Below, piece after piece: positions 844-48,551 of a stretch of DNA of 48,551 bases. This stretch comes from a virus (Duplodnaviria; Heunggongvirae; Uroviricota; Caudoviricetes). Positions within the stretch are counted from its first letter, which is position 1. Each line of letters opens with the position of its first letter. The notes under the pieces are model-generated. The model was given only the letters and a program-made list of their open reading frames with translations. It had not been told where the DNA came from and ran no database searches. A program made the translations under genes and the position numbers. The stretch is from IMG/VR virus record IMGVR_UViG_2627853771_000003; one strand, written 5' to 3'.

Positions 844-3315
844 TTAAGAATCAGCCTGACTCGGGATCAGTTTTTGCCAGATAGCTGAAACGTATTTTGC
901 CTGGTAACGGGCGTCATCAAGTGCATTATGGCGCTCACCTTCGAATGGAATAGCCGTTCTGGCATCGAAGTCTATGGCTTTCCCCAGCTCAACGATTGTG
1001 CGTACATCGCGATCGTTGTAGTAACGCCACGGGCAGGGGATCCCCTGCCGTTCGTATGAACGGCGCAAAATCGTGTTGTCGAAGTTGGCTCCATTTCCCC
1101 AAACCTGAACAAAAAATTCACCGGAGTTTTCGTCGATAAATTCCCGCAATTGTAACAGTGCATCATCTAACGGGATTTCATCGGTCATAATGGCAGATTG
1201 CGCTTCGCGTGATTGCTTAAGCCACCATTTAATGGTGTCCCGATCAATGACTCCGCCAGCAGTTTCCAGATCGATAGTCTTACTAAATTCCGGTCCCATA
1301 TCTCCGGTTTGCGGATCGAAAAATATTGCACCTATTGAGATGATCGGGGCATCAGGATTTTTTCCCATGGTTTCAAGGTCGATCATTAGATGGTCACACG
1401 TCCTGCTGGTGGATGTGATTTCGTGATGACCGTTCACCTTAATTGGGTGATCTGCCGTCTCGCCAGTTTCATTATCGCTATTGTGATGCTGATTGCCGCC
1501 AGTGTTCTCCTTGTGTGGATGTTCAGCGCCTTCCATTTCCTCCGGATCATCTTCCTGAACTTCAACCTGATACTCTTCATCGAATGTTTCTTGGTATGTT
1601 GCGTCGCCCATCACCGCGCCACAATCAGGGCAGTTGCCGCCGCCGGTCTGACCGCAGGCGGTGCAGACTTTTTCCACTTCCTGTTGCGCCACTGGTTCAG
1701 GCTGTTTCGTTTCTGGCTCGTTTTGTAACGCATTTGGACTGTTTTGTTCCGCTTTTTGGTAGTTCCGTTCCGATTCATGCTGGTTCTGGTTCACAGAATC
1801 GCGGGTCTGGATCCCCTTAACCCATTTCGGATCATTCGGGTCACTAATCCCTTCAACAAATTCACCACGTGATGCAGCAAGCAACTTATCGGCGTCAGGC
1901 TGGCTGATATTGGCTGCCTGCATAATTTTGTTTACTTCGTCAGCGGTAACTTTTATCGGCTCTGGTTGTTCTGAATCTTCAGCGGTATCTACATTTTGCG
2001 GTAAGCCCGTGTATGTGCCATTTTTTCGGGCAAAATATTCTTCTTTTGTGATTTCAGTGGCGCCAGCAGCCAGTGCCTTATCCAGACCAGAAAGTTTGTT
2101 TGCGCGACCGTATTTTTCTCCGTCCTTATCTGCGAAGAGGAAATAGAACGGCCCCTCACGCTCTACAGATGGTTCAGCTTCCGGCGCGGTTTCATTTTTT
2201 GGGATATCAGATACCTCAGTTTCCACTGCATCAGTTTGTGTTTCTGATGACTGGAGAACATCAACAGTGCTCAGGTCTGTTTCTTCATTCTCAAACACGC
2301 CCTTTGTCGTCAGGTATTCGCAGATATATTTGTTCAGTGCTACGGGATCTTTGTGAATGTCGATCGGACGCTCACGGACAAGGCCAAAAATAGTCTGGCG
2401 GTCGTAGCGAAGGGCATCAGGCTGTTTGCGCATTGATGCCGAGATACGCTTCCAGTCTTCGCGGTCGTTGTCGATAACTTCTTTTTTTGCCCAGCGATGG
2501 ATGCTGCCGTCAATGTTTCCGGCATCCACATCACCAGGCCAGAGAGCGTAGGCCAGTTCGTCATCCAGTGTTTTCCATGTCTGCTTGTATTCGCGATGAA
2601 TGGCAGCAATGACCGGGCTGATTTTTCCTGTTGAATTTTCAGTGTACTGTTGATTGGCTCTGGCGCGGGCGAGATCAACAACAGACGTGTATTTTCCGGT
2701 TTCCTTGCGTTCACCTTCGCGACGTTTTTTCCAGATGCGCATCTCTGCCTGAATTTCGGGCCATTTAGCACCAGGAATACATTTATGCTTAACCCACCCA
2801 ATGGCGTGCAACTTAAGCTCCGGATACATGGCGTTAACTTCTGGCATTTTCATCAACGCTTCAACGATATGTCCGTCGAATGTTGCCATGTCTTCCTGCA
2901 ACAATTCCTGTGCGCTAATAACCATATCAACGGTGATGTTTTCACATGTGTCGAACTTAACCATGACAGCGTTCTGTACTTCAGGGGCCAGCTTGTCAAA
3001 AGTGACGTTCATCGGATCGGATTCAGTCTCAACCGGGCCAAAAGAAGCAGACTCCTCATCCCAGCGGTTTTCCTGCATATATTCAGCATCCCATGAATCG
3101 AGGGCAGGGCGGGGTATGCCAGGTTTATCCTCGCAGACAATAAATTTATAAGCGCAGTCCTGAGCAGCCGGATAATGTTCCAGGAACTGCCAGTGAAATT
3201 TTGCTCGAGCACGGCGTTCGTCGCCAGCTTCAATGGCTGTGGCTACAGCCACAGCGCCTTCTTCCCTTGTTGCCAGTTCGTCAGGAATAGCGGCGCAAAT
3301 AAAGACTTTACTCAT
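844..3315 (-). CDS. RecE-like exodeoxyribonuclease with C-terminal DnaQ/DEDDh-type 3'-5' exonuclease motifs
   Basis: 823-aa ORF with an SD (GAGG) before the ATG. The middle region (KLLAASRGEFVEGISDPNDPKWVKGIQTRD; CTACGQTGGGNCPDCGAVMGDATYQETFDEE) matches what I recall of RecE. The C-terminus carries DLETMG, WGNGANFDNTIL and HNALDDA, the three DEDDh exonuclease motifs. Confidence 0.8.
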   Translation of the reverse strand: MSKVFICAAIPDELATREEGAVAVATAIEAGDERRARAKFHWQFLEHYPAAQDCAYKFIVCEDKPGIPRPALDSWDAEYMQENRWDEESASFGPVETESDPMNVTFDKLAPEVQNAVMVKFDTCENITVDMVISAQELLQEDMATFDGHIVEALMKMPEVNAMYPELKLHAIGWVKHKCIPGAKWPEIQAEMRIWKKRREGERKETGKYTSVVDLARARANQQYTENSTGKISPVIAAIHREYKQTWKTLDDELAYALWPGDVDAGNIDGSIHRWAKKEVIDNDREDWKRISASMRKQPDALRYDRQTIFGLVRERPIDIHKDPVALNKYICEYLTTKGVFENEETDLSTVDVLQSSETQTDAVETEVSDIPKNETAPEAEPSVEREGPFYFLFADKDGEKYGRANKLSGLDKALAAGATEITKEEYFARKNGTYTGLPQNVDTAEDSEQPEPIKVTADEVNKIMQAANISQPDADKLLAASRGEFVEGISDPNDPKWVKGIQTRDSVNQNQHESERNYQKAEQNSPNALQNEPETKQPEPVAQQEVEKVCTACGQTGGGNCPDCGAVMGDATYQETFDEEYQVEVQEDDPEEMEGAEHPHKENTGGNQHHNSDNETGETADHPIKVNGHHEITSTSRTCDHLMIDLETMGKNPDAPIISIGAIFFDPQTGDMGPEFSKTIDLETAGGVIDRDTIKWWLKQSREAQSAIMTDEIPLDDALLQLREFIDENSGEFFVQVWGNGANFDNTILRRSYERQGIPCPWRYYNDRDVRTIVELGKAIDFDARTAIPFEGERHNALDDARYQAKYVSAIWQKLIPSQADS

Positions 3316-3408
3316 TTTGTTTTAACCTCATGACAGATTTAAGGATGAACAAATCCCTGCCATTGCTGGCATATAAGAATGAAACCGGATATTTATTACG
3401 GAACTGTT

Positions 3409-3475
3409 TTAAAGACCTGCCGGGATTTCGATATTATCCTGGTGAATAACTTTATCGACCGGGTAACAGTTACCG
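3409..3475 (-). pseudogene. ydfD: ydfD 3' fragment (last 20 codons plus stop), separated from its 5' part by IS2
   Basis: Removing IS2 and one copy of the TSD joins 4936..4807 to 3475..3409 in frame, giving a 63-aa protein MNSAFVLVLTVFLVSGEPVDIAVSAHRTMQECMTAATEQKIPG|NCYPVDKVIHQDNIEIPAGL. Confidence 0.6.
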
Positions 3476-3486
3476 TGGATTTGCCC

Positions 3487-4392
3487 CTATATTTCCAGAC
3501 ACCTGTTATCACTTAACCCATTACTGGCCTGCTGCCGCAGATATTCCCGTGGCGAGCGATAACCCAGTGCACTATGCGGGTGCCATTCGTTATAATGCTC
3601 GAACGCCTCTGCAAGGTTCTTTGCTGCCGTTAACCCGTCTGGTTTAGGCATGATACTGATGTAGTCACGCTTTATCGTTTTCACGAAGCTCTCTGCTATG
3701 CCGTTACTCTCCGGACTCCGCACCGCCGTGTTCTTCGGTTCAAGCCCTAATATCCGGGCAAACTGCCGTGTTTCATTAGCCCGGTAGCATGAACCATTAT
3801 CCGTCAGCCACTCTACTGGAGACGCCGGAAGCTCGTTGCCGAAGCGGCGTTCCACCGCTCCCAGCATGACGTCCTGTACTGTTTCACTGTCGAAGCCGCC
3901 CGTAGTGACTGCCCAGTGCAGTGCCTCACGGTCACAGCAGTCCAGCGCGAACGTGACTCGCAGTTTTTCTCCGTTATCACAGCGGAACTCGAACCCGTCA
4001 GAGCACCATCGTTGATTGCTTTCTTTCACGGCCACTTTGCCAGTATGTGCCCGTTTCGATGGCGGTACAGCGGTTTTTCGCTCAAGCAACAGCGCATTCT
4101 GGCGCATGATCCGGTAAACACGTTTGGCATTGATCGCAGGCATACCATCAAGTTCGGCCTGTCTGCGAAGCAGCGCCCATACCCGACGATAACCATACGT
4201 GGGCAGCTCTCCGATAACATGGTGTATACGGAGAAGCACATCCGTATCATCTGAGTGACGGCTGCGGCGACCATCTTTCCAGTCATCGGTTCGTCTGAGA
4301 ATTACGTGCAACTGCGCACGCGACACCCGGAGACAACGGCTGACTAAGCTTACTCCCCATCCCCGGGCAATAAGGGCGCGTGCGCTATCCAC
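3487..4392 (-). CDS. insD: IS2 transposase OrfB (InsD)
   Basis: 301-aa ORF with a DDE-type integrase core, recognised as IS2 InsD. Confidence 0.9.
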
Positions 4393-4715
4393 TTTTTTGC
4401 ACGCCCGTATTCAACGGCTTCTTTAAGGAGTTCATTTTCCATCGTTTTTTTGCCGAGCAGGCGCTGGAGTTCTTTAATCTGCTTCATGGCAGCAGCAAGT
4501 TCAGAGGCAGGAACGACCTGCTCTCCTGCGGCCACAGCAGTAAGACTTCCCTCCTGGTATTGCTTGCGCCAGAGAAATAACTGGCTGGCTGCCACACCGT
4601 GTTGCCGGGCAACAAGGGAGACCGTCATTCCCGGTTCAAAACTCTGCTGAACAATAGCGATCTTTTCCTGTGTAGTACGCCGTCTGCGTTTCTCCGGTCC
4701 TAAGACATCAATCAT
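4350..4715 (-). CDS. insC: IS2 OrfA (InsC), HTH protein
   Basis: [26 protein letters not shown]...; overlaps insD in the -1 frame as expected for programmed frameshifting. Confidence 0.85.
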
Positions 4716-4806
4716 CTGCTCTCCAATGACTAGTCTAAAAACTAGTATTAAGACTATCACTTATTTAAGTGATATTGGTTGTCTGGAGATTCATGGGGCC
4801 AGTCTA

Positions 4807-4936
4807 TACCGGGAATTTTCTGTTCGGTTGCTGCAGTCATACACTCCTGCATTGTCCTGTGCGCACTGACTGCAATATCAACTGGCTCTCCGGAAACAAG
4901 AAAAACTGTCAGAACAAGCACAAATGCTGAATTCAT
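4807..4936 (-). pseudogene. ydfD: ydfD 5' fragment (first 43 codons), interrupted by IS2
   Basis: Its ATG overlaps the dicB stop (ATGA). The reading frame runs into the IS2 end, where it picks up 16 foreign codons ([16 protein letters not shown]) and a stop. Confidence 0.6.
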
Positions 4937-13345: not shown

Positions 13346-13870
13346 TTATTGTTTAACCCATAATAGTTCATTGACATTGAATCCCAACTTTTGAGCGGTA
13401 CGCACATAGTCTGCTTTTACATTATCTGGAATAGTTTGGGTCCTTGCCAGAATCCATAGGTATTCTCTGTTCGGACCACTGACAAGAGCATACTTATACT
13501 CATCATCCAGTTTGATTACATTATAGCCACCATAGAAGGGGCCAAAAAACGAAACTTTCAACGCTGCAGTTTTAGTATCTCCAGTAAAGTATGCTTTACC
13601 TTCGCTCTCGCTCCATTTGTTTTTCGTTGGATCGTATCCACGGTTAAGTACGCGAATCCCTCCGTCGTTCCGTTTTTCATAAGTAGCGCTGACCTGTTCC
13701 AGACCACGTTCGAACCAGTTCTCGAGGCGAGCTATTTCATACCATTTTCCGAGGTAGCGGTTGGCGTCAAAATTTGTAATCGGCTGCACACCTTTAGGTG
13801 GTGTCGGGGCCTTACATGCTATAAGAGTGAAAGAGAGTGCAATGCCAGTCAACACAGGCCATAACTTCAT
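13346..13870 (-). CDS. Blc-like bacterial lipocalin, outer-membrane lipoprotein (moron)
   Basis: Signal peptide with lipobox LIAC; lipocalin motifs YLGKWYEIARLENWFERG and SFFGPFYGGYNVI; opposite strand to the phage late genes. Confidence 0.85.
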   Translation of the reverse strand: MKLWPVLTGIALSFTLIACKAPTPPKGVQPITNFDANRYLGKWYEIARLENWFERGLEQVSATYEKRNDGGIRVLNRGYDPTKNKWSESEGKAYFTGDTKTAALKVSFFGPFYGGYNVIKLDDEYKYALVSGPNREYLWILARTQTIPDNVKADYVRTAQKLGFNVNELLWVKQ

Positions 13871-34269: not shown

Positions 34270-37200
34270 TTTGGGGATTGATGCGGCAGAGTTTAAAAAT
34301 GAAATTCCCCGTATCAAAAACCTTCTGAATGGTGCAGCCAGCGATGCAGAACGGTCTTCTGCCCGTATGCAGCGTTTTATGGAGCGTCAGACTCAGGCCG
34401 CCCGGCAGACAACGCAGGCGGCTTCTTCGGCTGCAACAGCCGCATCCGTCCATGCGCAGACGGTGGAGAAGAACGCACAGGCTCATGAACGCATGGCCCG
34501 CGAGGTGGAGAAAACCCGCCAGCGCATGGAGGCACTGAGCCAGAAAATGCGCGAGGAACAGGCGCAGGCCATGGCTCTGGCGGAGGCTCAGGATAAAGCG
34601 GCTGCCGCGTTTTATCGTCAGATTGACAGTGTAAAACAGGCCAGTGCGGGGCTGCAGGAATTACAGCGTATTCAGCAGCAGATCCGACAGGCCAGAAACA
34701 GTGGCGGGATTGGTCAGCAGGATTATCTGGCGCTGATTTCTGAGGTTACGGCGAAAACCCGTGTTCTTACACAGGCTGAGGAAGAGGCTACCCGACAGAA
34801 AGTGGCGTTTATCCGTCAGCTTAAAGAGCAGGCAACCCGCCAGAATCTTTCTTCTTCTGAGTTGCTTCGTGCTAAGGCTGCCCAGCTGGGGGTAAGCAGT
34901 GCTGCAGAAGTGTATATCCGCAAAATGGAGCAGGCAGGAAAAGCAACGCATTCGCTGGGTCTGAAAAGTGCAGCGGCCCGTCAGGAGATAGGCGTTCTGA
35001 TAGGTGAACTGGCCCGCGGCAATTTAGGTGCGCTGAGGGGATCCGGAATAACGCTGGCTAACCGTGCCGGATGGATAGACACATTGATGTCACCGAAAGG
35101 CATGATGCTTGGCGGGGTTATTGGCGGTATTGCCGCGGCTGTCTATGGTCTGGGTAAAGCCTGGTATGACGGTCAGAAGGAGGGGGAAGAATTTAACCGC
35201 CAGCTGTCGCTGACGGGGCATTATGCCGGAGTCACTGCCGGGCAGCTGTGGACGCTCAGTCGTGCTATTTCCGGGAATGGTATCACGCAACATGCTGCAG
35301 CCGGTGCGCTGGCTCAGGTGGTGGGGAGTGGTGCATTTCGTGGAAACGATATCGGTATGGTGGCGAGAGCTGCCGCACAGATGGAGCGATCGGTTGGCCA
35401 GTCGGTCAGCGATACCATAAATCAGTTTAAGCGGCTGAAGGATGATCCTGTAAATGCCGCGAAGGCTCTGGACAATGAGCTGCATTTTCTTACTGCCACT
35501 CAGCTTGAGCAGATACGCGTCCTTGGGGAACAGGGGCGGTCCAGTGATGCGGCACGGATAGCCATGTCTGCACTGGCAGAGGAAACCGGTCGGCGTACTG
35601 CGGATATTGATAATAACCTCAATGCGCTGGGCAGTACGCTGAAGTATCTGTCTGATTTATGGAGTCGTTTCTGGGATGCGGCCATGAATATTGGTCGTGA
35701 AGACTCGCTGGATGAACAGATTTCCGCTTTACAGGAGAAAGTGTCGCGGGCGAAAAGACTCCCCTGGACGGCATCATCTTCTCAGGTTGAGTACGATCAG
35801 CAGCGTCTTAACGAGCTTCAGGAGAAAAAACGCCAGAAGGATTTGCAGGATGCAAAAGAGCAGGCAGAGCGGAATTATCAGGAGCAACAGAAACGCCGTA
35901 ATGCTGAAAATGCTGCACTGAACCGGATGAATGAAACGGAAGCAGCACGACATCAGCGTGAAATTGCGCGTATTAATGCCATGCAGTACGCCGATCAGGC
36001 TGTCAGGGATGCGGCGATACAACGTGAAAATGAACGTTACGAGAAAGCCCTGGCATCCGGTAAGAAAAAAACACGCGAACCCCGTAATGATGAGGCCACC
36101 CGGTTATTGCTGCAGTACAGTCAGCAACAGGCACAGGTGGAAGGACAGATTGCTGCTGCCAGACAGTCAGCAGGCATTGCCACGGAAAGGATGACAGAAG
36201 CGCATAAACAGCTTCTGGCTCTGCAGCAGCGCATCAGCGACCTGGACGGGAAAAAACTGACGGCAGATGAAAAGAGTGTGCTGGCCCGTAAAGATGAACT
36301 GATTCAGGCACTGACGCTGCTGGATGTAAAACAGCAGGAGCTTCAGAAACAGACGGCACTCAACGAGCTGAAGAAAAAAACAATTCAGCTGACCAGTCAA
36401 CTGGCTGAAGAAGAGCGCGCTCAGCGTCAGCAACATGACCTGGATATCGCCACGGTGGGTATGGGTGATCAGCAGCGGCAGCGATATCAGGTACAACTGA
36501 GTCTTCGCCAGAAATACCAGCAACAGCTGGAGCAGTTGAGGCGGGATAGTGAGCAGAAAGGAACATATAACACGGATGACTACAGAAAGGCCGAGCAGGC
36601 GCTGACGGAGAGCCTGAACCGACAACTGAATGAGAATCGCCGTTACTGGCAACAGCTTGAAGTTGTGCAGGGTAACTGGAAAAACGGAGTCCTGCGTGCA
36701 TTTCAGGATTTTACCGTGGATGCAGATAATACGGCAGGAACAGCAGAACAGGTGTTCTCGTCAGCCTTCAGCAACATGGGAAATGGCCTGGCAACTTTTG
36801 TCACTACCGGCAAACTCAATTTCAAATCCTTCACCTCTTCTGTGCTGTCAGATATGGCGAAAATCCTGGCGCAGGCAACCATGATGAAATCGATAAAAGG
36901 GATTGGCAGTGTACTGGGATTTGATCTCAGCAGCCTTTCCCTGAATGCCAATGGGGGGATTTATCAGTCTGCTGATTTGAGCCGTTACAGTGGCACGGTG
37001 GTTAACCGTCCGACGTTTTTTGCTTTTGCAAAAGGCGCGGGTGTGATGGGGGAAGCGGGACCTGAAGCCATTCTGCCACTGCGTCGTGGTGCTGACGGTA
37101 AGCTGGGGGTTGTGGCGGATATTGGTGGTTCAGGTATGGCGATGTTTGCCCCGCAGTACAACATCGAGATCAATAACGATGGCACGAACGGGCAGATAGG

Positions 37201-37306
37201 TCCGGCTGCCCTGAAGGTGGTTTATGACCTTGGGAAAAAAGCGGCAGCGGACTTTATGCAACAGCAGGCCCGTGATGGTGGTCGGTTAAGTGGAGCATAT
37301 CGGTAA
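34241..37306 (+). CDS. H: tail tape measure protein H
   Basis: 1021 aa, coiled-coil rich; SD GGAGG. Confidence 0.9.
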   Translation: MDQIANLVIDLGIDAAEFKNEIPRIKNLLNGAASDAERSSARMQRFMERQTQAARQTTQAASSAATAASVHAQTVEKNAQAHERMAREVEKTRQRMEALSQKMREEQAQAMALAEAQDKAAAAFYRQIDSVKQASAGLQELQRIQQQIRQARNSGGIGQQDYLALISEVTAKTRVLTQAEEEATRQKVAFIRQLKEQATRQNLSSSELLRAKAAQLGVSSAAEVYIRKMEQAGKATHSLGLKSAAARQEIGVLIGELARGNLGALRGSGITLANRAGWIDTLMSPKGMMLGGVIGGIAAAVYGLGKAWYDGQKEGEEFNRQLSLTGHYAGVTAGQLWTLSRAISGNGITQHAAAGALAQVVGSGAFRGNDIGMVARAAAQMERSVGQSVSDTINQFKRLKDDPVNAAKALDNELHFLTATQLEQIRVLGEQGRSSDAARIAMSALAEETGRRTADIDNNLNALGSTLKYLSDLWSRFWDAAMNIGREDSLDEQISALQEKVSRAKRLPWTASSSQVEYDQQRLNELQEKKRQKDLQDAKEQAERNYQEQQKRRNAENAALNRMNETEAARHQREIARINAMQYADQAVRDAAIQRENERYEKALASGKKKTREPRNDEATRLLLQYSQQQAQVEGQIAAARQSAGIATERMTEAHKQLLALQQRISDLDGKKLTADEKSVLARKDELIQALTLLDVKQQELQKQTALNELKKKTIQLTSQLAEEERAQRQQHDLDIATVGMGDQQRQRYQVQLSLRQKYQQQLEQLRRDSEQKGTYNTDDYRKAEQALTESLNRQLNENRRYWQQLEVVQGNWKNGVLRAFQDFTVDADNTAGTAEQVFSSAFSNMGNGLATFVTTGKLNFKSFTSSVLSDMAKILAQATMMKSIKGIGSVLGFDLSSLSLNANGGIYQSADLSRYSGTVVNRPTFFAFAKGAGVMGEAGPEAILPLRRGADGKLGVVADIGGSGMAMFAPQYNIEINNDGTNGQIGPAALKVVYDLGKKAAADFMQQQARDGGRLSGAYR

Positions 37307-37635
37307 TGGAGACGTTTCACTGGAAAGTGCGCCCGGATATGAATGTGGTATCAGAGCCGAAAGTGGTGACAGTGAAGCTGGGCGATGGTTATGAACAGCG
37401 TCGTGCGGCGGGACTGAATAACCAGTTGTCGATTTACAGCGTGACGATACGTGTTCGTAAATGTGAACACCCATCTTTAAAAGCCTTTCTGGAACGGCAC
37501 GGTGGCGTCCGCGCATTTCAGTGGACGCCACCTTATGACTGGAAGCCGATCAGGGTGGTTTGTCGTAAATGGTCGGCAAGCGTGGGGGCGCTGTGGGTAA
37601 CCATAACGGCAGATTTTGAACAGGTCGTGGCATAG
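37306..37635 (+). CDS. M: minor tail protein M
   Basis: 109 aa; ATG overlaps the H stop (TAATG). Confidence 0.85.
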   Translation: METFHWKVRPDMNVVSEPKVVTVKLGDGYEQRRAAGLNNQLSIYSVTIRVRKCEHPSLKAFLERHGGVRAFQWTPPYDWKPIRVVCRKWSASVGALWVTITADFEQVVA

Positions 37636-37644
37636 GAGGCTCTG

Positions 37645-38343
37645 ATGCAGGATATTCCACAGGAAACACATCATGAGACGACACGCCTCACTCAGTCAGC
37701 CCAGGTGGTGCTCTGGGAAATCGATCTGACAGAGGTCGGTGGTGAACGTTATTTTTTCGGTAATGAGCAGAACGAAAAAGGTGAACCAGTCACCTGGCAG
37801 GGGCGGCAGTATCAGGCTTATCCCATTCAGGGAAGCGGATTTGAGATGAACGGCAAAGGAGCCAGTGCAAGGCCAACGCTTAAAGTCTCTAATCTGTACG
37901 GCATGGTCACCGGGATGGCGGAAGACCTGCAGAGTCTGGTCGGCGGAACGGTGGTCCGGCGTAAGGTTTACGCCCGTTTTCTGGATGCGGTGAACTTCGT
38001 CAACGGAAACAGTGACGCCGATCCGGAGCAGGAGGTGATCAGCCGCTGGCGCATCGAGCAGTGCAGCGAACTGAGCGCGGTGAGTGCCTCTTTTGTACTG
38101 TCCACGCCGACGGAAACGGACGGTGCCGTTTTTCCGGGACGTATCATGCTGGCCAACACCTGCACCTGGACCTATCGCGGTGATGAGTGCGGTTATCACG
38201 GTCCGGCGGTAGCGGATGAATATGATCAGCCGACGTCCGATATCACGAAGGATAAATGCAGCAAGTGCCTGAGCGGCTGTAAGTTTCGCAATAACGTCGG
38301 CAACTTTGGCGGCTTCCTTTCCATTAACAAACTTTCGCAGTGA
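37645..38343 (+). CDS. L: minor tail protein L
   Basis: 232 aa; SD AGGAGG; C-terminal Cys cluster. Confidence 0.85.
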   Translation: MQDIPQETHHETTRLTQSAQVVLWEIDLTEVGGERYFFGNEQNEKGEPVTWQGRQYQAYPIQGSGFEMNGKGASARPTLKVSNLYGMVTGMAEDLQSLVGGTVVRRKVYARFLDAVNFVNGNSDADPEQEVISRWRIEQCSELSAVSASFVLSTPTETDGAVFPGRIMLANTCTWTYRGDECGYHGPAVADEYDQPTSDITKDKCSKCLSGCKFRNNVGNFGGFLSINKLSQ

Positions 38344-39697: not shown

Positions 39698-42600
39698 ATG
39701 GGTAAAGGCAGCAGTAAGGGGCATACCCCGCGCGAAGCAAAGGACAACCTGAAGTCCACGCAGTTGCTGAGTGTGATCGATGCCATCAGCGAAGGGCCGG
39801 TTGAAGGTCAGGTGGATGGATTAAAAAGCGTGCTGCTGAACAGTACACCGGTGCTGGACAGTGAGGGGAATACCAACATCTCCGGTGTCACGGTGGTGTT
39901 CCGTGCCGGTGAGCAGGAGCAGACACCGCCGGAGGGGTTTGAATCCTCCGGCTCCGAGACGGTGCTGGGTACGGAAGTGAAATATGACACGCCGATCACC
40001 CGCACCATTACGTCTGCAAACATCGACCGTCTGCGCTTTACCTTCGGTGTGCAGGCACTGGTGGAAACCACCTCAAAGGGGGACCGGAATCCGTCGGAAG
40101 TTCGCCTGCTGGTTCAGATACAGCGTAATGGTGGCTGGGTGACGGAAAAAGACATCACCATTAAGGGCAAAACCACCTCGCAGTATCTGGCCTCGGTGGT
40201 GGTGGATAACCTGCCGCCGCGCCCGTTTAATATCCGGATGCGCAGGATGACGCCGGACAGCACCACAGACCAGCTGCAGAACAAAACGCTCTGGTCGTCA
40301 TACACCGAAATCATCGATGTGAAACAGTGCTACCCGAACACGGCACTGGTCGGCGTGCAGGTGGATTCGGAGCAGTTCGGCAGCCAGCAGGTGAGCCGTA
40401 ATTATCATCTTCGCGGGCGTATTCTGCAGGTGCCGTCGAATTATAACCCGCAGACGCGGCAATACAGCGGTATCTGGGACGGGACGTTTAAACCGGCATA
40501 CAGCAACAACATGGCCTGGTGTCTGTGGGATATGCTGACCCACCCGCGCTACGGCATGGGGAAACGTCTCGGTGCGGCGGATGTGGACAAATGGGCGCTG
40601 TATGTCATCGGCCAGAATTGTGACCAGTCGGTGCCGGACGGCTTTGGCGGTACGGAGCCGCGCATCACCTGTAACGCTTACCTGACCACACAACGTAAGG
40701 CGTGGGATGTGCTCAGTGATTTCTGCTCGGCGATGCGCTGTATGCCGGTATGGAACGGGCAGACGCTGACGTTCGTGCAGGACCGACCATCGGATAAGGT
40801 GTGGACCTATAACCGCAGTAATGTGGTGATGCCGGATGATGGCGCGCCGTTCCGCTACAGCTTCAGCGCCCTGAAGGACCGCCATAATGCCGTTGAGGTG
40901 AACTGGATTGACCCGGATAACGGCTGGGAGACGGCAACAGAGCTTGTGGAGGACTCGCAGGCCATTGCCCGTTACGGTCGTAACGTCACGAAGATGGATG
41001 CGTTTGGCTGTACCAGTCGGGGGCAGGCGCACCGCGCCGGGCTGTGGCTGATTAAAACAGAACTGCTGGAAACGCAGACCGTGGACTTCAGCGTGGGTGC
41101 CGAAGGGCTTCGCCATGTACCGGGCGATGTCATTGAAATCTGCGATGATGACTATGCCGGTATCAGCACCGGCGGGCGCGTGCTGGCGGTGAACAGCCAG
41201 ACCCGGACGCTGACGCTCGACCGTGAAATCACGCAGCCATCCTCCGGCACCACGCTGATAAGCCTGGTTGACGGAAGTGGCAATCCGGTCAGCGTGGAGG
41301 TCCAGTCCGTCACCGACGGCGTGAAGGTGAAAGTGAGCCGGGTTCCTGACGGCGTTGCCGAGTACAGCGTGTGGGGGCTGAAGCTGCCGACGCTGCGCCA
41401 GCGCCTGTTCCGCTGTGTGAGTATCCGTGAGAACGACGACGGTACGTATGCCATCACTGCAGTGCAGCATGTACCGGAGAAAGAAGCCATCGTGGATAAC
41501 GGGGCGCACTTTGACGGTAACCAGAGCGGCACGGTGAATGGTGTCACGCCGCCAGCAGTGCAGCATCTGACCGCCGAAGTCACCGCAGACAGCGGGGAAT
41601 ACCAGGTGCTGGCCCGCTGGGACACGCCGAAGGTGGTGAAGGGCGTGAGCTTCCTGCTTCGCCTGACCGTGGCAGCGGATGACGGCAGTGAGCGGCTGGT
41701 CAGCACGGCCCGGACGACGGAAACCACTTACCGCTTCACACAACTGGCTCTGGGGAACTACAGGCTGACAGTCCGGGCAGTAAATGCGTGGGGGCAGCAG
41801 GGCGATCCGGCGTCGGTATCGTTCCGGATTGCCGCACCGGCAGCGCCGTCGCGGATTGAGCTGACGCCGGGCTATTTTCAGATAACCGCCACGCCGCATC
41901 TTGCGGTTTATGATCCGACGGTACAGTTTGAGTTCTGGTTCTCGGAAAAGCGGATTGCGGATATCAGGCAGGTTGAAACCACAGCACGCTATCTTGGCAC
42001 GGCGCTGTACTGGATAGCCGCCAGTATCAATATCAGGCCGGGCCATAATTATTATTTTTACGTTCGCAGTGTGAACACCGTTGGCAAATCGGCATTCGTG
42101 GAGGCTGTTGGTCAGCCGAGTGATGACGCATCCGGCTATCTGGATTTTTTCAAAGGCGAGATAGGGAAAACCCATCTGGCTCAGGAGCTGTGGACGCAGA
42201 TTGATAACGGTCAGCTTGCGCCTGACCTGGCTGAAATCAGGACATCCATTACGGATGTCAGCAATGAAATCACACAGACCGTCAATAAGAAACTGGAAGA
42301 CCAGAGTGCAGCGATCCAGCAGATACAGAAGGTTCAGGTTGATACAAATAATAACCTGAACAGCATGTGGGCCGTGAAACTGCAGCAGATGCAGGACGGA
42401 CGCCTTTATATTGCGGGTATCGGTGCCGGTATTGAGAATACGTCAGCAGGAATGCAGAGTCAGGTGCTGCTGGCGGCAGACAGGATTGCGATGATTAATC
42501 CTGCGAATGGCAACACAAAGCCGATGTTTGTTGGTCAGGGTGATCAGATATTCATGAACGACGTGTTCCTGAAACGCCTGACGGCTCCCACCATTACCAG

Positions 42601-43177
42601 CGGCGGTAATCCTCCTGCATTTTCCCTTACACCGGACGGGCGACTGACGGCGAAAAATGCGGATATCAGTGGCAGTGTGAATGCGAACGCCGGGACGCTC
42701 AACAATGTCACGATAAATGAAAACTGTCGGGTTCTGGGAAAACTGTCTGCGAACCAGATTGAAGGCGATCTCGTTAAAACAGTGGGCAAAGCTTTCCCCC
42801 GGGACTCCCGTGCACCGGAGCGGTGGCCATCAGGGACCATTACCGTCAGGGTTTATGACGATCAGCCGTTTGACCGGCAGATTGTTATTCCCACGGTGGC
42901 GTTTCGTGGCGCTAAACATGAGCGGGAGAATAACGATATTTATTCGTCATGCCGCCTGATAGTGAAGAAAAACGGTGCTGAAATTTATAACCGTACCGCG
43001 CTGGATAATACGCTGGTTTATACAGGTGTTATTGATATGCCTGCTGGTCGCGGTCACATGACGCTGGAGTTTTCGGTATCAGCGTGGCTGGTAAATGACT
43101 GGTATCCCACAGCCAGTATCAGTGATTTGCTGGTTGTGGTGATGAAGAAATCCACAGCAGGTATCACGATTAGCTGA
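39698..43177 (+). CDS. J: tail tip / host-specificity protein J
   Basis: 1159 aa; SD GAGGAA; lambda gene order. Confidence 0.9.
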
Positions 43178-43196
43178 ATTTTCATAACCCATATGC

Positions 43197-43224
43197 GGGC
43201 GCCATTTCTGGCGCCTTTTTTATT
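43197..43224 (+). terminator. rho-independent terminator after J
   Basis: GGCGCC-ATTTCT-GGCGCC hairpin followed by TTTTTTATT. Confidence 0.6.
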
Positions 43225-43245
43225 GCAGAAAAGCGAGAGGTAATT

Positions 43246-43845
43246 ATGCGTAAAGTTTGTGCAGCCATTTTGTCCGCAGCCATCTGTCTGGCCGTATCCG
43301 GTGCGCCTGCATGGGCGTCTGAGCAGCAGGCCACACTGAGCGCAGGGTATCTTCATGCCCGTACGAACGCTCCCGGCAGCGATAATCTGAACGGGATTAA
43401 CGTGAAATACCGTTATGAGTTTACGGACACGCTGGGGCTGATTACGTCATTCAGTTATGCCAACGCTGAAGATGAGCAAAAAACGCATTACAGCGATACC
43501 CGCTGGCATGAGGATTCCGTGCGTAACCGCTGGTTCAGCGTGATGGCGGGGCCGTCTGTGCGCGTGAATGAATGGTTCAGCGCGTATGCGATGGCGGGTG
43601 TGGCTTACAGCCGTGTGTCGACTTTCTCCGGGGATTATCTCCGCGTAACTGACAACAAGGGGAAAACGCACGATGTGCTGACCGGAAGTGATGACGGTCG
43701 CCACAGCAACACGTCTCTGGCGTGGGGGGCTGGCGTGCAGTTTAACCCGACCGAATCCGTGGCCATTGATGTCGCTTATGAAGGCTCCGGCAGTGGCGAC
43801 TGGCGCACTGACGGTTTCATCGTGGGTGTCGGTTATAAGTTCTGA
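43246..43845 (+). CDS. lom: Lom-like outer-membrane protein (Ail/PagC family)
   Basis: Signal peptide, C-terminal ...VGVGYKF beta-barrel terminus; SD GAGAGG; the position lom occupies in lambda. Confidence 0.85.
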   Translation: MRKVCAAILSAAICLAVSGAPAWASEQQATLSAGYLHARTNAPGSDNLNGINVKYRYEFTDTLGLITSFSYANAEDEQKTHYSDTRWHEDSVRNRWFSVMAGPSVRVNEWFSAYAMAGVAYSRVSTFSGDYLRVTDNKGKTHDVLTGSDDGRHSNTSLAWGAGVQFNPTESVAIDVAYEGSGSGDWRTDGFIVGVGYKF

Positions 43846-43871
43846 TTAGCCAGGTAACACAGTGTTATGAC

Positions 43872-43899
43872 AGCCCGCCGGTTCAGGCGGGCTTTTTTG
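43872..43899 (+). terminator. rho-independent terminator after lom
   Basis: AGCCCGCC-GGTTCA-GGCGGGCT hairpin followed by TTTTTT. Confidence 0.65.
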
Positions 43900-43909
43900 T
43901 GGGGTGAAT

Positions 43910-46900
43910 ATGGCAGTAAAGATTTCAGGTGTACTGAAAGACGGTGCAGGTAAACCGGTACAGAACTGCACAATCCAGCTGAAAGCAAAACGTAACAGCA
44001 CCACGGTGGTGGCGAACACGGTGGCCTCAGAAAATCCGGATGAAGCCGGGCGTTACAGCATGGACGTTGAGTACGGTCAGTACAGCGTTATTCTGTTGGT
44101 GGAAGGCTTCCCGCCATCGCATGCCGGGACCATCACCGTGTATGAAGACTCACAACCGGGTACGCTGAATGATTTTCTCGGTGCCATGACGGAGGATGAT
44201 GTCCGTCCGGAGGCACTGCGCCGCTTTGAACTGATGGTGGAAGAGGTGGCGCGTAACGCGTCCGCAGTGGCGCAGAACACAGCAGCCGCGAAGAAGTCAG
44301 CCAGCGATGCCAGCACATCAGCCCGTGAGGCGGCAACCCATGCGACTGATGCTGCAGGCTCAGCACGTGCAGCCAGCACGTCAGCCGGACAGGCCGCTTC
44401 GTCGGCTCAGTCAGCGTCTTCCAGCGCAGGAACGGCATCAACAAAGGCTACTGAAGCATCAAAAAGTGCTGCCGCTGCAGAGTCTTCAAAAAGCGCGGCA
44501 GCCACCAGTGCCGGTGCAGCGAAAACGTCAGAAACGAATGCCGCAGCATCACAAAAATCTGCGGCCACTTCTGCATCCACCGCGACCACGAAAGCGTCAG
44601 AAGCTGCCACCTCAGCCCGGGATGCGTCGGCTTCAAAAGTGGCGGCAAAATCATCAGAAACGAGCGCAGCCTCGAGCGCCGGCAGTGCAGCTTCCTCGGC
44701 AACGGCGGCAGGAAATTCCGCGAAGGCCGCAAAAACGTCTGAGACGAATGCGGATAACAGCGCACAGGCGGCAGCAGACTCACAAACTGCATCGGCAAAT
44801 TCCGCGACAGCAGCCAAAAAATCAGAAACCAACGCGAAAAATAGTGAGTCAGCAGCAAAGGTCAGCGAAACCAACGCTAAAGCGTCAGAGAACAAGGCGA
44901 AAGAATATCTCGACAAGGTCGGGGGACTCGTCAGCCCGATGACGCAATACGATTGGCCTGTTGTTACTGCTAGTGAGTCTCTTTACATCAAGATCGCGAA
45001 ACTTTCCGATCCTGGAACCAGCAGAAGTCATGTAACGCTAATGGTTACTAACGCTGGTAACTACGGCTCCCCTTACGGAAACATTGACTTTATCGAGATC
45101 TCGGCGCGCGGTCTGCCTTCTTTGCTTAGTGCGGATAATGTTTCTCGTCATCTGAGTATACGCCGCTTAGGGTCAACCGGGCTGACCGATAACAACCAGA
45201 TGCGTTACGGCCTGGTTAAAGGTGACGGCTTTATTGAGGTTTGGGCATTCCAGGGTGCGTTTATTAACGACGCAAAGGTTGCGGTGCTGGCGCAGACAAC
45301 ACTAAACACAGAATTATACATTCCAGACGGATTTGTTAAGCAAACCCCCGCGCCTTCTGGATATATTGAAGGCAACGTTGTAAGGATTTACGACCAGTTA
45401 AACAAGCCGACTAAAGCAGATTTGGGTCTTTCTAATGCTATGCTTACAGGCGCTTTCGGTCTTGGCGGTAGCGGGATATCAACAAACGGCAAGATGAGCG
45501 ATGTAGAGATCTTAAAAGCTCTGCGTGACAAAGGTGGTCATTTCTGGCGCGGTGATAAGCCGACCGGAAGCACGGCGACCATTTATAGCCACGGTTCTGG
45601 TATATTCTCGCGGTGCGGCGATACGTGGTCAGCGATCAATATCGACTACTCAACCGCGAAGATTAAGATCTATGCCGGCAACGATGCCCGGCTTAACAAC
45701 GGGACTTTTAGCGTCAATGAGCTATACGGCTCGGCAAACAAGCCGTCGAAATCGGATGTTGGACTTGGCAACGTAACGAACGATGCGCAGGTAAAAAAAA
45801 CCGGCGATACAATGACCGGTGACTTGACAATCAAAAAAGGTACACCGTCAGTCTTCCTGCGGGCAGACAGTGGAGTCACCGCTTTGCGGTTTTATACTGG
45901 CGATAACACAGAGCGCGGCATAATCTATGCTGGTCCTAACACTGATTCGCTTGGCGAAGTTCGCATCAGGGCAAAGACAGCAGGGGGGACATCAGGAGGG
46001 GATCTTGTTGTTCGTCACGACGGGAGGGTTGAAGTCCGTGATCTCACAGTAGCGTATAAAATTAAAAGCAGAACGATTGAGATTGCAAATACCGACACTG
46101 ACTCATCGGCAACTACGCTAAGCATCTATGGAGTACAGCACACGCCGTTGGTTTTAACGCGTTCTGGTTCTTCTGAAAATGTGTCCATTGGGTTTAAGTT
46201 AGACAACATGAACCCAAAGTATCTTGGAATTGATACTAATGGGGATCTGGCTTTTGGTGAGAGTCCTGATCAGAAACAAAACAGCAAATTGATCACGCAA
46301 GCGAAACTCGACAAGGGATTAACGATTGGTGGTCAACTGGCTTTCAAAGGTACGACAGCGTTTTCAGCCGTTGCTACGTTCAGTGCCGGGATAGCAGGAG
46401 CCATCGAGCCGGAAAACATTGACGGCCAGACGGTTAATCTTAACAACCTGACCATCATCAAGTCAGATGCCGGGGCAGTTAAATACTATATTTGTCCATC
46501 CTCTGCAGGTGGTGCAAATATCACCAACAAGCCTGACGGCGTAACAGGTAACTTTTTGCTCCGTGTTGAATCGACTCGTAAGGTTAGGGATTCAGATTAT
46601 GCGAACATGCAAACGCTGATTAACAGCGACACAAAACGTATATACGTTCGCTTTGTTGTTAATGGAAACTGGACAGCGTGGAGTCAGGTTGTTGTTTCCG
46701 GATGGAATCAGGATGTAACCGTAAGGTCGTTAACCTCGACGACTCCATCAAAATTAGGTGGCGGGCGGATTGATGTGCTTGGAAGTACGTCAGATTATGG
46801 CAGCATGAATTGTACCGTTCGTGGTGTTGATAGCACTGGAACCAATTCGGCGTGGTCGGTAGGCACATCAGAAAGCACAGGCAAAATGTTGTTCCTGAAA

Positions 46901-47689
46901 AACCACAGAAGCAGCGCTCAAGTGCTGTTAAATGGCGATGATGGAGCGGTTCAACTACTAAGTGGCACTGTTAACGGTGCTACAGCGCAGGCGCTAACCA
47001 TCAACAAAGATGAGGTTAACTCAACTGCCGATTTAGTAATTAGAAAACAAACAGGGACTGGCAATCGTTTTGCTTTACTTAATTCAGGTAATTCAGAACT
47101 ACCAGTTAGTATCAGGGTGTGGGGTTCCAGTACTCGACAAAACGTTTTTGAGGTTGGCACGTCTGCTGCGTATCTGTTTTATGCGCAAAAAACAACAGAC
47201 GGGCAAAACCTTACTGTAAACGGAAGTGTTAACTGCACCACACTGAATCAGTCATCAGACCGCAGACTGAAAGAAAATATCGAGATTATCGATAACGCGA
47301 CTGACGCAATCCGCAAAATTAATGGATACACGTACACGCTCAAGGAGAATGGGGCACATTGCGCCGGGGTTATAGCACAGGAAGTTGAAGAGGCCATCCC
47401 GGAGGCCGTTGGTTCATTCATCCATTACGGTGAAGAGTTGCAAGGCCCGACCGTTGACGGCAACGAGCTACGCGAAGAAACGCGCTATCTTAATGTTGAC
47501 TACGCCGCCGTGACGGGTTTACTTGTTCAGGTCGCCCGTGAAACAGATGATCGCGTTACCGCGCTGGAAGAGGAAAACACAACGTTACGTCAAAATCTGG
47601 CAACAGCAGGCACCCGGATCAGCACTCTGGAAAATCAGGTAAGCGAACTGGTTGCACTTGTCCGGCAGTTAACAGGAAGCGAACATTGA
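43910..47689 (+). CDS. stf: side tail fibre protein with Ala/Ser/Thr-rich repeat region and C-terminal intramolecular chaperone (peptidase S74-like) domain
   Basis: N-terminus MAVKISGVLKDGAGKPVQNCTIQLKAKRN (lambda Stf-like). Low-complexity A/S/T repeats at about 44250-44900. C-terminal 144 aa (47255-47686) begin SDRRLKENIEII, the conserved autoproteolytic motif. Confidence 0.85.
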   Translation: MAVKISGVLKDGAGKPVQNCTIQLKAKRNSTTVVANTVASENPDEAGRYSMDVEYGQYSVILLVEGFPPSHAGTITVYEDSQPGTLNDFLGAMTEDDVRPEALRRFELMVEEVARNASAVAQNTAAAKKSASDASTSAREAATHATDAAGSARAASTSAGQAASSAQSASSSAGTASTKATEASKSAAAAESSKSAAATSAGAAKTSETNAAASQKSAATSASTATTKASEAATSARDASASKVAAKSSETSAASSAGSAASSATAAGNSAKAAKTSETNADNSAQAAADSQTASANSATAAKKSETNAKNSESAAKVSETNAKASENKAKEYLDKVGGLVSPMTQYDWPVVTASESLYIKIAKLSDPGTSRSHVTLMVTNAGNYGSPYGNIDFIEISARGLPSLLSADNVSRHLSIRRLGSTGLTDNNQMRYGLVKGDGFIEVWAFQGAFINDAKVAVLAQTTLNTELYIPDGFVKQTPAPSGYIEGNVVRIYDQLNKPTKADLGLSNAMLTGAFGLGGSGISTNGKMSDVEILKALRDKGGHFWRGDKPTGSTATIYSHGSGIFSRCGDTWSAINIDYSTAKIKIYAGNDARLNNGTFSVNELYGSANKPSKSDVGLGNVTNDAQVKKTGDTMTGDLTIKKGTPSVFLRADSGVTALRFYTGDNTERGIIYAGPNTDSLGEVRIRAKTAGGTSGGDLVVRHDGRVEVRDLTVAYKIKSRTIEIANTDTDSSATTLSIYGVQHTPLVLTRSGSSENVSIGFKLDNMNPKYLGIDTNGDLAFGESPDQKQNSKLITQAKLDKGLTIGGQLAFKGTTAFSAVATFSAGIAGAIEPENIDGQTVNLNNLTIIKSDAGAVKYYICPSSAGGANITNKPDGVTGNFLLRVESTRKVRDSDYANMQTLINSDTKRIYVRFVVNGNWTAWSQVVVSGWNQDVTVRSLTSTTPSKLGGGRIDVLGSTSDYGSMNCTVRGVDSTGTNSAWSVGTSESTGKMLFLKNHRSSAQVLLNGDDGAVQLLSGTVNGATAQALTINKDEVNSTADLVIRKQTGTGNRFALLNSGNSELPVSIRVWGSSTRQNVFEVGTSAAYLFYAQKTTDGQNLTVNGSVNCTTLNQSSDRRLKENIEIIDNATDAIRKINGYTYTLKENGAHCAGVIAQEVEEAIPEAVGSFIHYGEELQGPTVDGNELREETRYLNVDYAAVTGLLVQVARETDDRVTALEEENTTLRQNLATAGTRISTLENQVSELVALVRQLTGSEH

Positions 47690-47863
47690 TATCCTTCAAG
47701 CTCTGAAGGAGGCTGTTCCCGGTACGTTCAGACTGTTGTTGAGCTGGAGATCGCAACGGAGGAAGAAAACTCGTTGTTGGAAGCCTGGAAGAAGTATCGG
47801 GTGTTGCTGAACCGTGTTGATACGTCAACTGCACAGGATATTGAATGGCCAGCACTGCCGTAG
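47690..47863 (+). pseudogene. tail fibre assembly protein (Tfa) 3' remnant, in frame directly after the stf stop
   Basis: No start codon; translation ...[41 protein letters not shown] matches the conserved C-terminus of Tfa chaperones. Confidence 0.5.
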
Positions 47864-47960
47864 GGTAAAACATATAAATTCTATAATTAGATGTATCTTT
47901 CCATTTACGGCAAGGAAGGGGGCTTGGAAGACGTAAAGCATCTCACACCGAGATTATTTT

Positions 47961-48551
47961 TTATATGTCAGGTGTCTGAAGTTTTGCTTTGGCTCTTAAA
48001 ATGGTTTGCCGCGAGGTTTTGAATTCCCGGGCAATGGCACTTATACTTACACCTGACTTAATTCGTTCGAATACCACCTGTTTCTGTTCTTCATTTAACA
48101 CAGGTGGTCGACCAAAACGTTTCCCTGCGCCGCGGGCTCTTACTATCCCGGAATGAGTGCGTTCAAGTAAAAGGTCTCGTTCAAATTCAGCGACTGCTGA
48201 AATTACGTGCATCATCATTTTTCCTGTTGGACTGGTCAGGTCAATGCCCCCCAATGCTAAGCAATGCACTCTGATACCTGTTTCGGTCAGTTGTTCCACT
48301 GTTTTCCTGATATCCATTGCATTACAACCAAGGCGATCCAGTTTTGTCACAATCAATTGATCACCACATTTCAGGCGAGCAAGCAACCGGTTAAAACCAG
48401 GACGCTCACTGGTTGCTGCTGAGCCGCTAATGTGTTCTTCGATTATTTGCTGAGGTTTGATTTTAAAACCTGCACTTTCGATTTCCCGGCGTTGATTTTC
48501 GGTGGTCTGATCCAGCGTTGATATCCGACAGTAAGCAAAAATTCGAGACAT
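47961..48551 (-). CDS. pin: serine-recombinase DNA invertase (Pin/Hin/Gin family)
   Basis: Complete 196-aa ORF (ATG is the last 3 nt of the window); N-terminal [15 protein letters not shown] with catalytic Ser, C-terminal HTH. Confidence 0.85.

Follow-up and report, generated by a model that had tools for sequence, protein, structure and literature searches.

Organization of the side tail fibre locus

The subject of this analysis is the side tail fibre locus at positions 43,910 to 48,551 of IMG/VR record IMGVR_UViG_2627853771_000003, a member of the Caudoviricetes whose entire analysed stretch of 48,551 nucleotides (nt) is here called the window. Three elements lie at this locus: the side tail fibre gene stf (43910..47689, plus strand); behind it and in frame with it, a stub holding the last 45 codons and the stop of a tail fibre assembly gene, tfa (47727..47863, plus strand); and, convergent with stf, the gene pinQ (47961..48551, minus strand), which encodes an intact small serine recombinase. 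A reading of the letters alone, hereafter the original prediction, had described a mosaic fibre with a built-in self-cleaving chaperone, an orphaned tfa remnant and an invertase, and all the elements that it described, namely the open reading frame (ORF), the domains, the stub and the recombinase, are found where it had placed them. The 4.65-kilobase (kb) fibre region is 100% identical to positions 1561725-1566376 of the genome of Escherichia coli PCN061 (NZ_CP006636.1); the window corresponds to a lambdoid prophage of this strain, inserted at the Qin site and defective, whose right end is the locus. The comparisons presented here point to the replacement of an older fibre tip, together with most of tfa, by a tip that ends in a chaperone domain of its own.

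The fibre is encoded by one continuous ORF of 1259 codons followed by a TGA stop (47687-47689), counting from the ATG at 43910 that opens the lambda-Stf-like sequence MAVKISGVL; a GTG at 43904 is the other possible start. RefSeq cuts this ORF in two, giving a partial N-terminal pseudogene (43910-44887) and a coding sequence for 917 amino acids (aa) that begins at Met344 (44939-47689). The whole gene carries one single product name in other genomes, and the split is an annotation artefact, a case of automatic annotation dividing a continuous gene into a false pseudogene and a shorter gene.

The mosaic begins with a lambda-Stf-type N-terminal tail-attachment domain (aa 1-134; 43910..44311, plus strand), which covers the whole of the Pfam profile PF08400, phage_tail_N, with an E-value of 1.1e-71. 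Having this domain and lying after J and lom, the gene is of the lambda Stf type, and the lambda-Stf-like N-terminus that had been recognized by eye is thus borne out by a profile match. It is followed by the predicted Ala/Ser/Thr-rich repeat block (aa 121-335, about 215 residues; 44270..44914, plus strand), which is delimited by composition and periodicity: Ala, Ser and Thr make up 69% of its residues, and its self-identity is 0.39-0.45 at lags of 7, 14, 21, 28 and 35 residues as against about 0.17 at other lags. This seven-residue period suggests that the block is probably a trimeric coiled-coil shaft. The repetition is not at the DNA level, which rules out a tandem repeat of the DNA.

The remainder of the fibre up to the chaperone domain (aa 336-1115; 44915..47254, plus strand) is its variable part, comprising the distal shaft and the presumed receptor-binding tip. 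The lower guanine-cytosine (GC) content predicted for this part is real as a contrast, with values of 0.46-0.50 against 0.58 in the repeat block. However, the distal part lies near the window average of 0.499 and the repeat block, rich in Ala codons, is high, so that the contrast mostly reflects the repeat block and is a weak sign of foreign origin for the distal part. At the end of the variable part, just before the chaperone domain (about 47000-47250, aa ~1060-1110), lies the motif SIRVWGSS...VFEVGTSAAYLFYAQ, also written SIRVWGSS..RQNVFEVGTSAAYLFYAQ, which matches a repeat of gp34, a long tail fibre protein of T4 (PDB 4UXE, E = 1.5e-8); on this match, the motif appears to be a further mosaic piece common to unrelated phages.

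A C-terminal domain of the Peptidase_S74 chaperone type

The C-terminal domain (aa 1116-1259; 47255..47686, plus strand) had been taken for an intramolecular chaperone from its opening residues, and the domain search agrees: aa 1116-1167 match Pfam PF13884, Peptidase_S74 (‘chaperone of endosialidase’), with an E-value of 2.6e-16 and a score of 60.1 bits against a cut-off of 22, and the domain finishes in a coiled coil. The sequence SDRRLK begins at aa 1116 (nt 47255) and retains the catalytic Ser-Lys motif S-D-x-x-x-K as S1116-D-R-R-L-K1121, with Ser1116 at 47255-47257 and Lys1121 at 47270-47272. Across 15 homologues (51-100% identity), SDxxLK keeps its Ser, Asp and Lys without exception, and the domain as a whole is far more conserved than the tip that precedes it. 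A conserved domain behind divergent tips is the pattern that would be expected of a shared folding module placed behind variable receptor-binding tips.

The closest solved relative of this domain is the C-terminus of gp37 of phage S16 (6F45, E = 1.9e-8), with which the SDxxxK motif aligns. S74 chaperone domains are known to help the trimer fold and then to cleave themselves off (PMC12143355, citing Schulz et al. 2010), and fibres that combine a coiled-coil N-terminal part with a self-cleaving S74 C-terminal domain form a recognised structural class (PMC12143355). From this homology and family membership, we infer that the fibre of the window likewise cleaves itself and folds independently of Tfa.

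The tfa stub and the breakpoints of the replacement

Between the fibre and the stub lies a filler of 43 nt (47684..47726, plus strand), which holds the last codon of stf (CAT) and its TGA stop as well as a Shine-Dalgarno-like AAGGAGG that no start codon follows. The AAGGAGG may be what remains of the ribosome-binding site of the gene that stood behind the donor fibre. The frame that continues beyond the fibre stop is 57 residues long, and its residues 13-57 match positions 86-130 of the 131 positions of the Caudo_TAP profile (E = 1.9e-19), in keeping with the roughly 45 in-frame codons of a Tfa end that had been noticed in the sequence. With only this part of the profile covered and the start codon absent, the stub is not a complete, translatable Tfa; RefSeq labels it a partial ‘tail fiber assembly protein’ pseudogene. 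Its DNA is 98-99% identical to the end of tfaQ in the Qin prophage of K-12 and in PhiR42_1. The list of ORFs for the stf-pinQ interval contains none of at least 40 aa that could encode a chaperone or an adhesin.

The surroundings of the locus identify the relatives with which it is best compared. As judged from the annotated surroundings, the prophage is inserted at ydfJ, the site of the cryptic prophage Qin of K-12, and its right-end gene set is that of K-12, namely the tfa end, pinQ, ydfK, ynfT and a truncated ydfJ. K-12 Qin (stfQ-tfaQ-pinQ) and PhiR42_1 share this site and these right-end genes with the window and keep the ordinary stf-tfa-pinQ arrangement, in PhiR42_1 with a full tfa and a convergent pinQ; whereas both have a conventional tip and a full tfa, the window has an S74-ending distal part in place of the two. 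PhiR42_1 is homologous to the window at 43139-44751 and then again at 47727-48551 (98.7%), and K-12 Qin matches the same right-hand block from 47727 onward at 98-99%; with both relatives, homology on the left extends to 44751. Since relatives with a normal stf-tfa-pinQ arrangement are thus collinear with the window on both flanks, the tip and most of tfa have been replaced, just as the original prediction had proposed, although by an old and widespread cassette that is not particular to this prophage. Judging from these alignments, the incoming cassette is the stretch of about 3 kb between 44751 and 47727.

On the left, the exchange zone lies within the heptad block, where homology to the window ends at 44751 in PhiR42_1 and at 44883 in phage mEp460. 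On the right, the genes of more distant S74 fibres close with ...QLTGSEE, a TAA stop and then a rho-independent terminator, and lack a tfa stub; the window is homologous to them as far as 47683. These terminator-ended genes would show what the 3' end of the donor looks like. The breakpoints can therefore be mapped to about 44750-44960 on the left and to 47683/47727 on the right, and such natural fusion points could serve fibre engineers as a template. The locus is in this respect a clean natural example of a self-chaperoned tip displacing both an old tip and its separate helper gene and leaving a dated scar.

The same architecture, with an identical junction of stop, filler and tfa stub, is found in the side fibres of Ayreon (MF807953), mEp460 (JQ182728) and PhiR70_1 (PV340577). 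The Ayreon fibre is 82% identical to that of the window in amino acid sequence over the full length, whereas mEp460 has aa 1-331 and 935-1259 in common with it and lacks the middle. At the DNA level, the window and Ayreon are 95-99% identical in the N-terminal part; beyond about 44958 the figure falls to 87-89%, and in the middle of the fibre (45400-46600) to 59-80%, before it returns to 97% over the chaperone end and the stub. The contrast between the 97% of the chaperone end and stub and the 59-80% of the middle fits repeated exchange via conserved ends. This has a precedent in lambda, which acquires DNA of Rac and Qin by homologous recombination inside homology blocks in stf and tfa (De Paepe et al., PMC3945230); in one third of the Rac recombinants, the crossover lay in a 95%-identical tfa block (PMC3945230).

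These observations also raise the possibility that the in-frame stub is itself functional, either as a C-terminal extension of the fibre reached by read-through or as a docking sequence selected for cassette exchange. The stub is in frame and free of stops and frameshifts in the window, Ayreon and mEp460, its identity between the window and Ayreon far exceeds that of the fibre middle, and crossovers in the tfa block have been seen experimentally (PMC3945230). Yet a junction falls in frame by chance one time in three, and a single ancestral junction amounts to one independent observation. Further, the stub has no start codon, an extension would be carried by the very domain that the fibre is expected to shed, recombination with intact copies of tfa explains the high identity equally well, and 134 nt give no power for a test of selection. 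We hence consider a function of the stub unlikely, and read-through of the TGA is judged unlikely to matter, the in-frame state being a single ancestral coincidence.

Distribution of the junction and of the fibre type

The junction of stop, filler and stub was counted wherever at least 80% of a 371-nt query was covered in 5426 complete E. coli genomes. It is present in 803 of them (about 15%), and the whole 4.65-kb arrangement is present in 232. The identical junction in Ayreon, mEp460 and PhiR70_1 comes from isolated, plaque-forming phages (recorded hosts E. coli K12, E. coli and E. coli C, respectively), and in Ayreon and mEp460 no tfa is annotated behind the fibre gene. As the junction is identical in these phages and widespread in genomes, the replacement event was single, is old and has spread widely. 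In the annotated regions of Ayreon and mEp460, other genes follow the stub and pinQ is absent. We also observed the junction in prophages at other sites, near potB in strain TUM2805 and in strain OkiPb01694 (4202-4873 and 1089-4861 of the respective extracted loci), where a methyltransferase or an acyltransferase gene rather than pinQ comes next and where the locus is often degraded by insertion sequence (IS) elements or frameshifts.

In the protein database, the fibre tip has hundreds of relatives from E. coli, and such products already go by the names ‘pyocin knob domain-containing S74 family peptidase’ and ‘prophage tail fiber N-terminal domain and S74 family endopeptidase-containing protein’ in RefSeq. 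The architecture is thus real but ordinary, of a kind already known and annotated among the side tail fibres of E. coli prophages. With a RefSeq product name of its own, a frequency of about 15% among complete E. coli genomes and a place in a recognised fibre class, the locus by itself adds little to what is known of such fibres.

The multiplicity of tfa bears on whether the fibre might still need a helper supplied in trans, be it a Tfa encoded by a different prophage or, as in phages S16 and T2, an adhesin of the gp38 kind that binds the tip once the chaperone has been removed. Among solved structures, the chaperone domain is closest to S16 gp37, a fibre protein whose tip is covered by the gp38 adhesin. 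Moreover, a gp38-like adhesin has been inferred by the RBPseg authors for a phage with an S74-ending fibre (PMC12143355). Several copies of tfa are present in most E. coli genomes, the junction query matching a median of two places per genome. However, no gene of this kind adjoins the fibre here, in Ayreon or in mEp460, and the PCN061 genome has a single place that matches the stf/tfa/pin query. Also, the classic S74 proteins pb1 of T5 and the K1F endosialidase are not known to need a partner, which we count against a helper. On balance, it is quite improbable that the fibre depends on one, a shade more so than that the stub is functional.

PinQ and the search for an inversion system

The 196-aa product of pinQ combines a Resolvase domain (aa 4-144) with an HTH_7 domain (aa 147-190). 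It is 98% identical to PinQ of K-12 and 38% identical to PinE of e14 (183 aa), and its closest solved structure is that of Gin (109 bits), with the gamma-delta resolvase at 82 bits. In its N-terminal catalytic domain and C-terminal helix-turn-helix, PinQ has the domain organization of the Din family of invertases. Din-family invertases are about 60% or more identical to one another, and at 38% identity to PinE, PinQ does not share this close kinship.

Crossover sites were sought by scanning with the family consensus of Hin, Gin, Cin and Pin (20 positions) in the window, 9 kb of flanking genome, K-12 Qin, PhiR42_1, Ayreon and mEp460. As a positive control, the two crossover sites of e14 were recovered from K-12; they score 19 and 18 out of 20. 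No site of the Hin/Gin/Cin/Pin type was found in the scanned loci, where no score exceeded 15 out of 20, which is at chance level; in the window, the flanks, K-12 Qin and PhiR42_1, five matches scored at least 14 against 4.4 expected by chance. Likewise, no inverted repeat above chance was found in the region from the fibre to ydfJ or in PhiR42_1. One 20-nt inverted pair with 85% identity, whose arms lie inside pinQ and ydfK, was rejected, since by a rough estimate about 0.6 such pairs are expected by chance. Neither an alternative exon for the fibre tip nor a second tfa on the opposite strand was found in 43900-48551 and 1.3 kb beyond. Taken together, the window, the 9 kb of flanking genome and the related phages yielded neither an invertible segment nor paired sites nor an alternative exon, and the original prediction, which had reported neither an alternative exon nor clear crossover sites, is upheld in this by both the inverted-repeat and the consensus scans.

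We observed a perfect 14-base-pair (bp) palindrome, CAAAATCGATTTTG, about 135 bp upstream of pinQ and beyond the end of the window (13790-13803 of the extracted flanking locus). Conserved as well in K-12 Qin and PhiR42_1, it loosely resembles a pair of serine-recombinase half-sites, and no partner with up to three mismatches was found for it anywhere in the window. It could be a binding or autoregulation site of PinQ.

Both the palindrome and the recombinase itself could be cited for the reading that the locus is, or once was, a fibre system switched by its invertase, the sites having been missed as PinQ sites might differ from those of Hin, Gin, Cin and Pin: PinQ is intact, and with only 38% identity to PinE its preferred site could differ. 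Several lines of evidence argue otherwise. Within the window the palindrome is unpaired, inverted repeats here and in PhiR42_1 do not rise above chance, and there is no opposite-strand second fibre exon or second tfa. Further, pinQ is oriented towards the fibre gene, whereas transcription of pinE in e14 leads away from the invertible segment beside it. A 2025 study reports that PinQ inverts the P segment of e14 in trans, acting on the canonical e14 sites (PMC12529663), and that inversions across E. coli genomes occur only in e14 and not in Qin or Rac (PMC12529663). A switched fibre system at this locus is therefore highly improbable, the least likely of the possibilities considered here.

In e14 (Pin), Mu (Gin) and P1 (Cin), a small serine recombinase lies beside tail fibre genes, as it does in the window; however, the window lacks their 26-bp crossover sites and opposed second pair of tip and tfa, and differs in the convergent orientation of pinQ, as opposed to the divergent one of pinE, as well as in the low identity of the two proteins. 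The only reported target of PinQ is missing from its usual place in PCN061, as e14 is absent from its usual site at icd in this strain (icd-iraM, 35983-37659 of the extracted locus). As PinQ is placed alike beside intact stf-tfa pairs, which themselves lack an invertible segment, it is not a relic of the tip replacement or of a lost invertible segment. Rather, whether the S74 cassette is present or not, PinQ belongs to the Qin/Rac right-end module as an ordinary, independent passenger, and this locus offers it no target. Of the claim that a complete Pin-type invertase had been retained, the completeness of the serine recombinase stands, whereas ‘Pin-type’ and ‘retained’ overstate its link to fibre inversion, given its distance from PinE, its convergent orientation and its like placement beside intact stf-tfa.

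A more far-reaching proposal would join the stub and the recombinase: the stub, together with the N-terminal part of Stf, would be a maintained docking block through which homologous recombination could bring Tfa-independent tips into any lambdoid stf-tfa locus, with PinQ, lacking a target in its own prophage, acting only in trans on the invertible fibre segments of co-resident prophages. We regard this as unlikely, on a par with a functional stub; if true, the docking block and the trans-acting PinQ would represent a division of labour between prophages.

A probable self-chaperoned tip exchanged into a lambdoid fibre locus

In light of the above, we consider it very likely that the locus is a Qin-type right end that carries a widespread side-fibre exchange cassette, with a self-chaperoned tip, a tfa scar and PinQ as a passenger. 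The interpretation offered in the original prediction is thus supported: the C-terminal domain does match the S74 chaperone-peptidase profile, and the searches returned no invertible segment with paired sites and an alternative exon.

Under this model, the fibre would attach to the tail via its lambda-Stf N-terminal domain and would continue through the heptad coiled coil and the variable distal shaft to the terminal S74 chaperone. By analogy with characterised S74 fibres, the chaperone domain would drive trimer folding of the distal part, whereupon Ser1116, activated by Lys1121, would cut it off, freeing about 144 residues and exposing the receptor-binding tip. A separate Tfa chaperone would then no longer be needed. 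The cassette would have entered a standard stf-tfa locus by recombination, with its left crossover in the conserved N-terminal and heptad region and its right end joined, with the 43-nt filler in between, to the final 134 nt of tfa. The resulting stub would be a non-coding scar and, at the same time, a homology block available for further cassette swaps among lambdoid phages.

The chaperone domain has well-known counterparts in the K1F endosialidase, the L-shaped fibre protein pb1 of T5 and gp37 of S16, all of which likewise bear a C-terminal SDxxxK Ser-Lys domain on a trimeric fibre. The relationship to these is limited to the chaperone domain, as the N-terminal domain in the window is that of lambda Stf, and cleavage of the window fibre is deduced from this kinship. 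The entire combination of an Stf N-terminal part with an S74-ending distal part has a synthetic copy in an engineered lambda-Stf/K1F chimeric fibre, the K1F part of which carries an S74 chaperone. This man-made chimera, which has been used on lambda particles (Brodel et al., Nature 2024, PMC11338833), is fused at Stf residue S528, whereas the natural junction lies at about residues 280-350. The use of the chimera on particles and the recognition of S74 fibres as a structural class make the proposed function plausible.

Several points weigh on the other side of this interpretation. We found no test of self-cleavage or of Tfa independence in the literature for this fibre or its close relatives. 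An AlphaFold2 monomer model of the last 329 residues, built on an alignment of 13 sequences, was unusable, with a mean predicted local distance difference test score (pLDDT) of 50.6 and values below 40 in the chaperone core; this is the kind of result that a trimeric, interlocked fold gives when modelled as a monomer. The source of the 43-nt filler was not found, the search of a phage collection having matched only Ayreon, PhiR70_1 and mEp460, which have the same junction. At 134 nt, the stub is too short to tell a selected recombination anchor from a merely young scar. Lastly, laboratory lambda is an stf mutant (PMC3945230) and forms plaques without side fibres; plaque formation by Ayreon and mEp460 is therefore no proof that their fibres assemble.

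The state of the prophage

The window ends exactly with the start codon of pinQ. According to the record annotation, the large terminase gene of the prophage is interrupted by an IS66-family element (ISEc23), the integrase gene is frameshifted and two IS3 copies are inserted (about 21500-26000 of the window and elsewhere; NZ_CP006636.1 1584614-1587030, 1594204-1595366, 1605561-1606789 and 1609791-1611070). As the prophage is defective, its intact fibre gene is a reservoir allele that is unlikely to be deployed on virions of its own.

Upstream of the fibre locus, a 625-aa open frame runs antisense to gene J (40298-42175 of the window, minus strand); lying in a region with a GC content of about 60%, it is almost certainly a non-coding artefact of composition.

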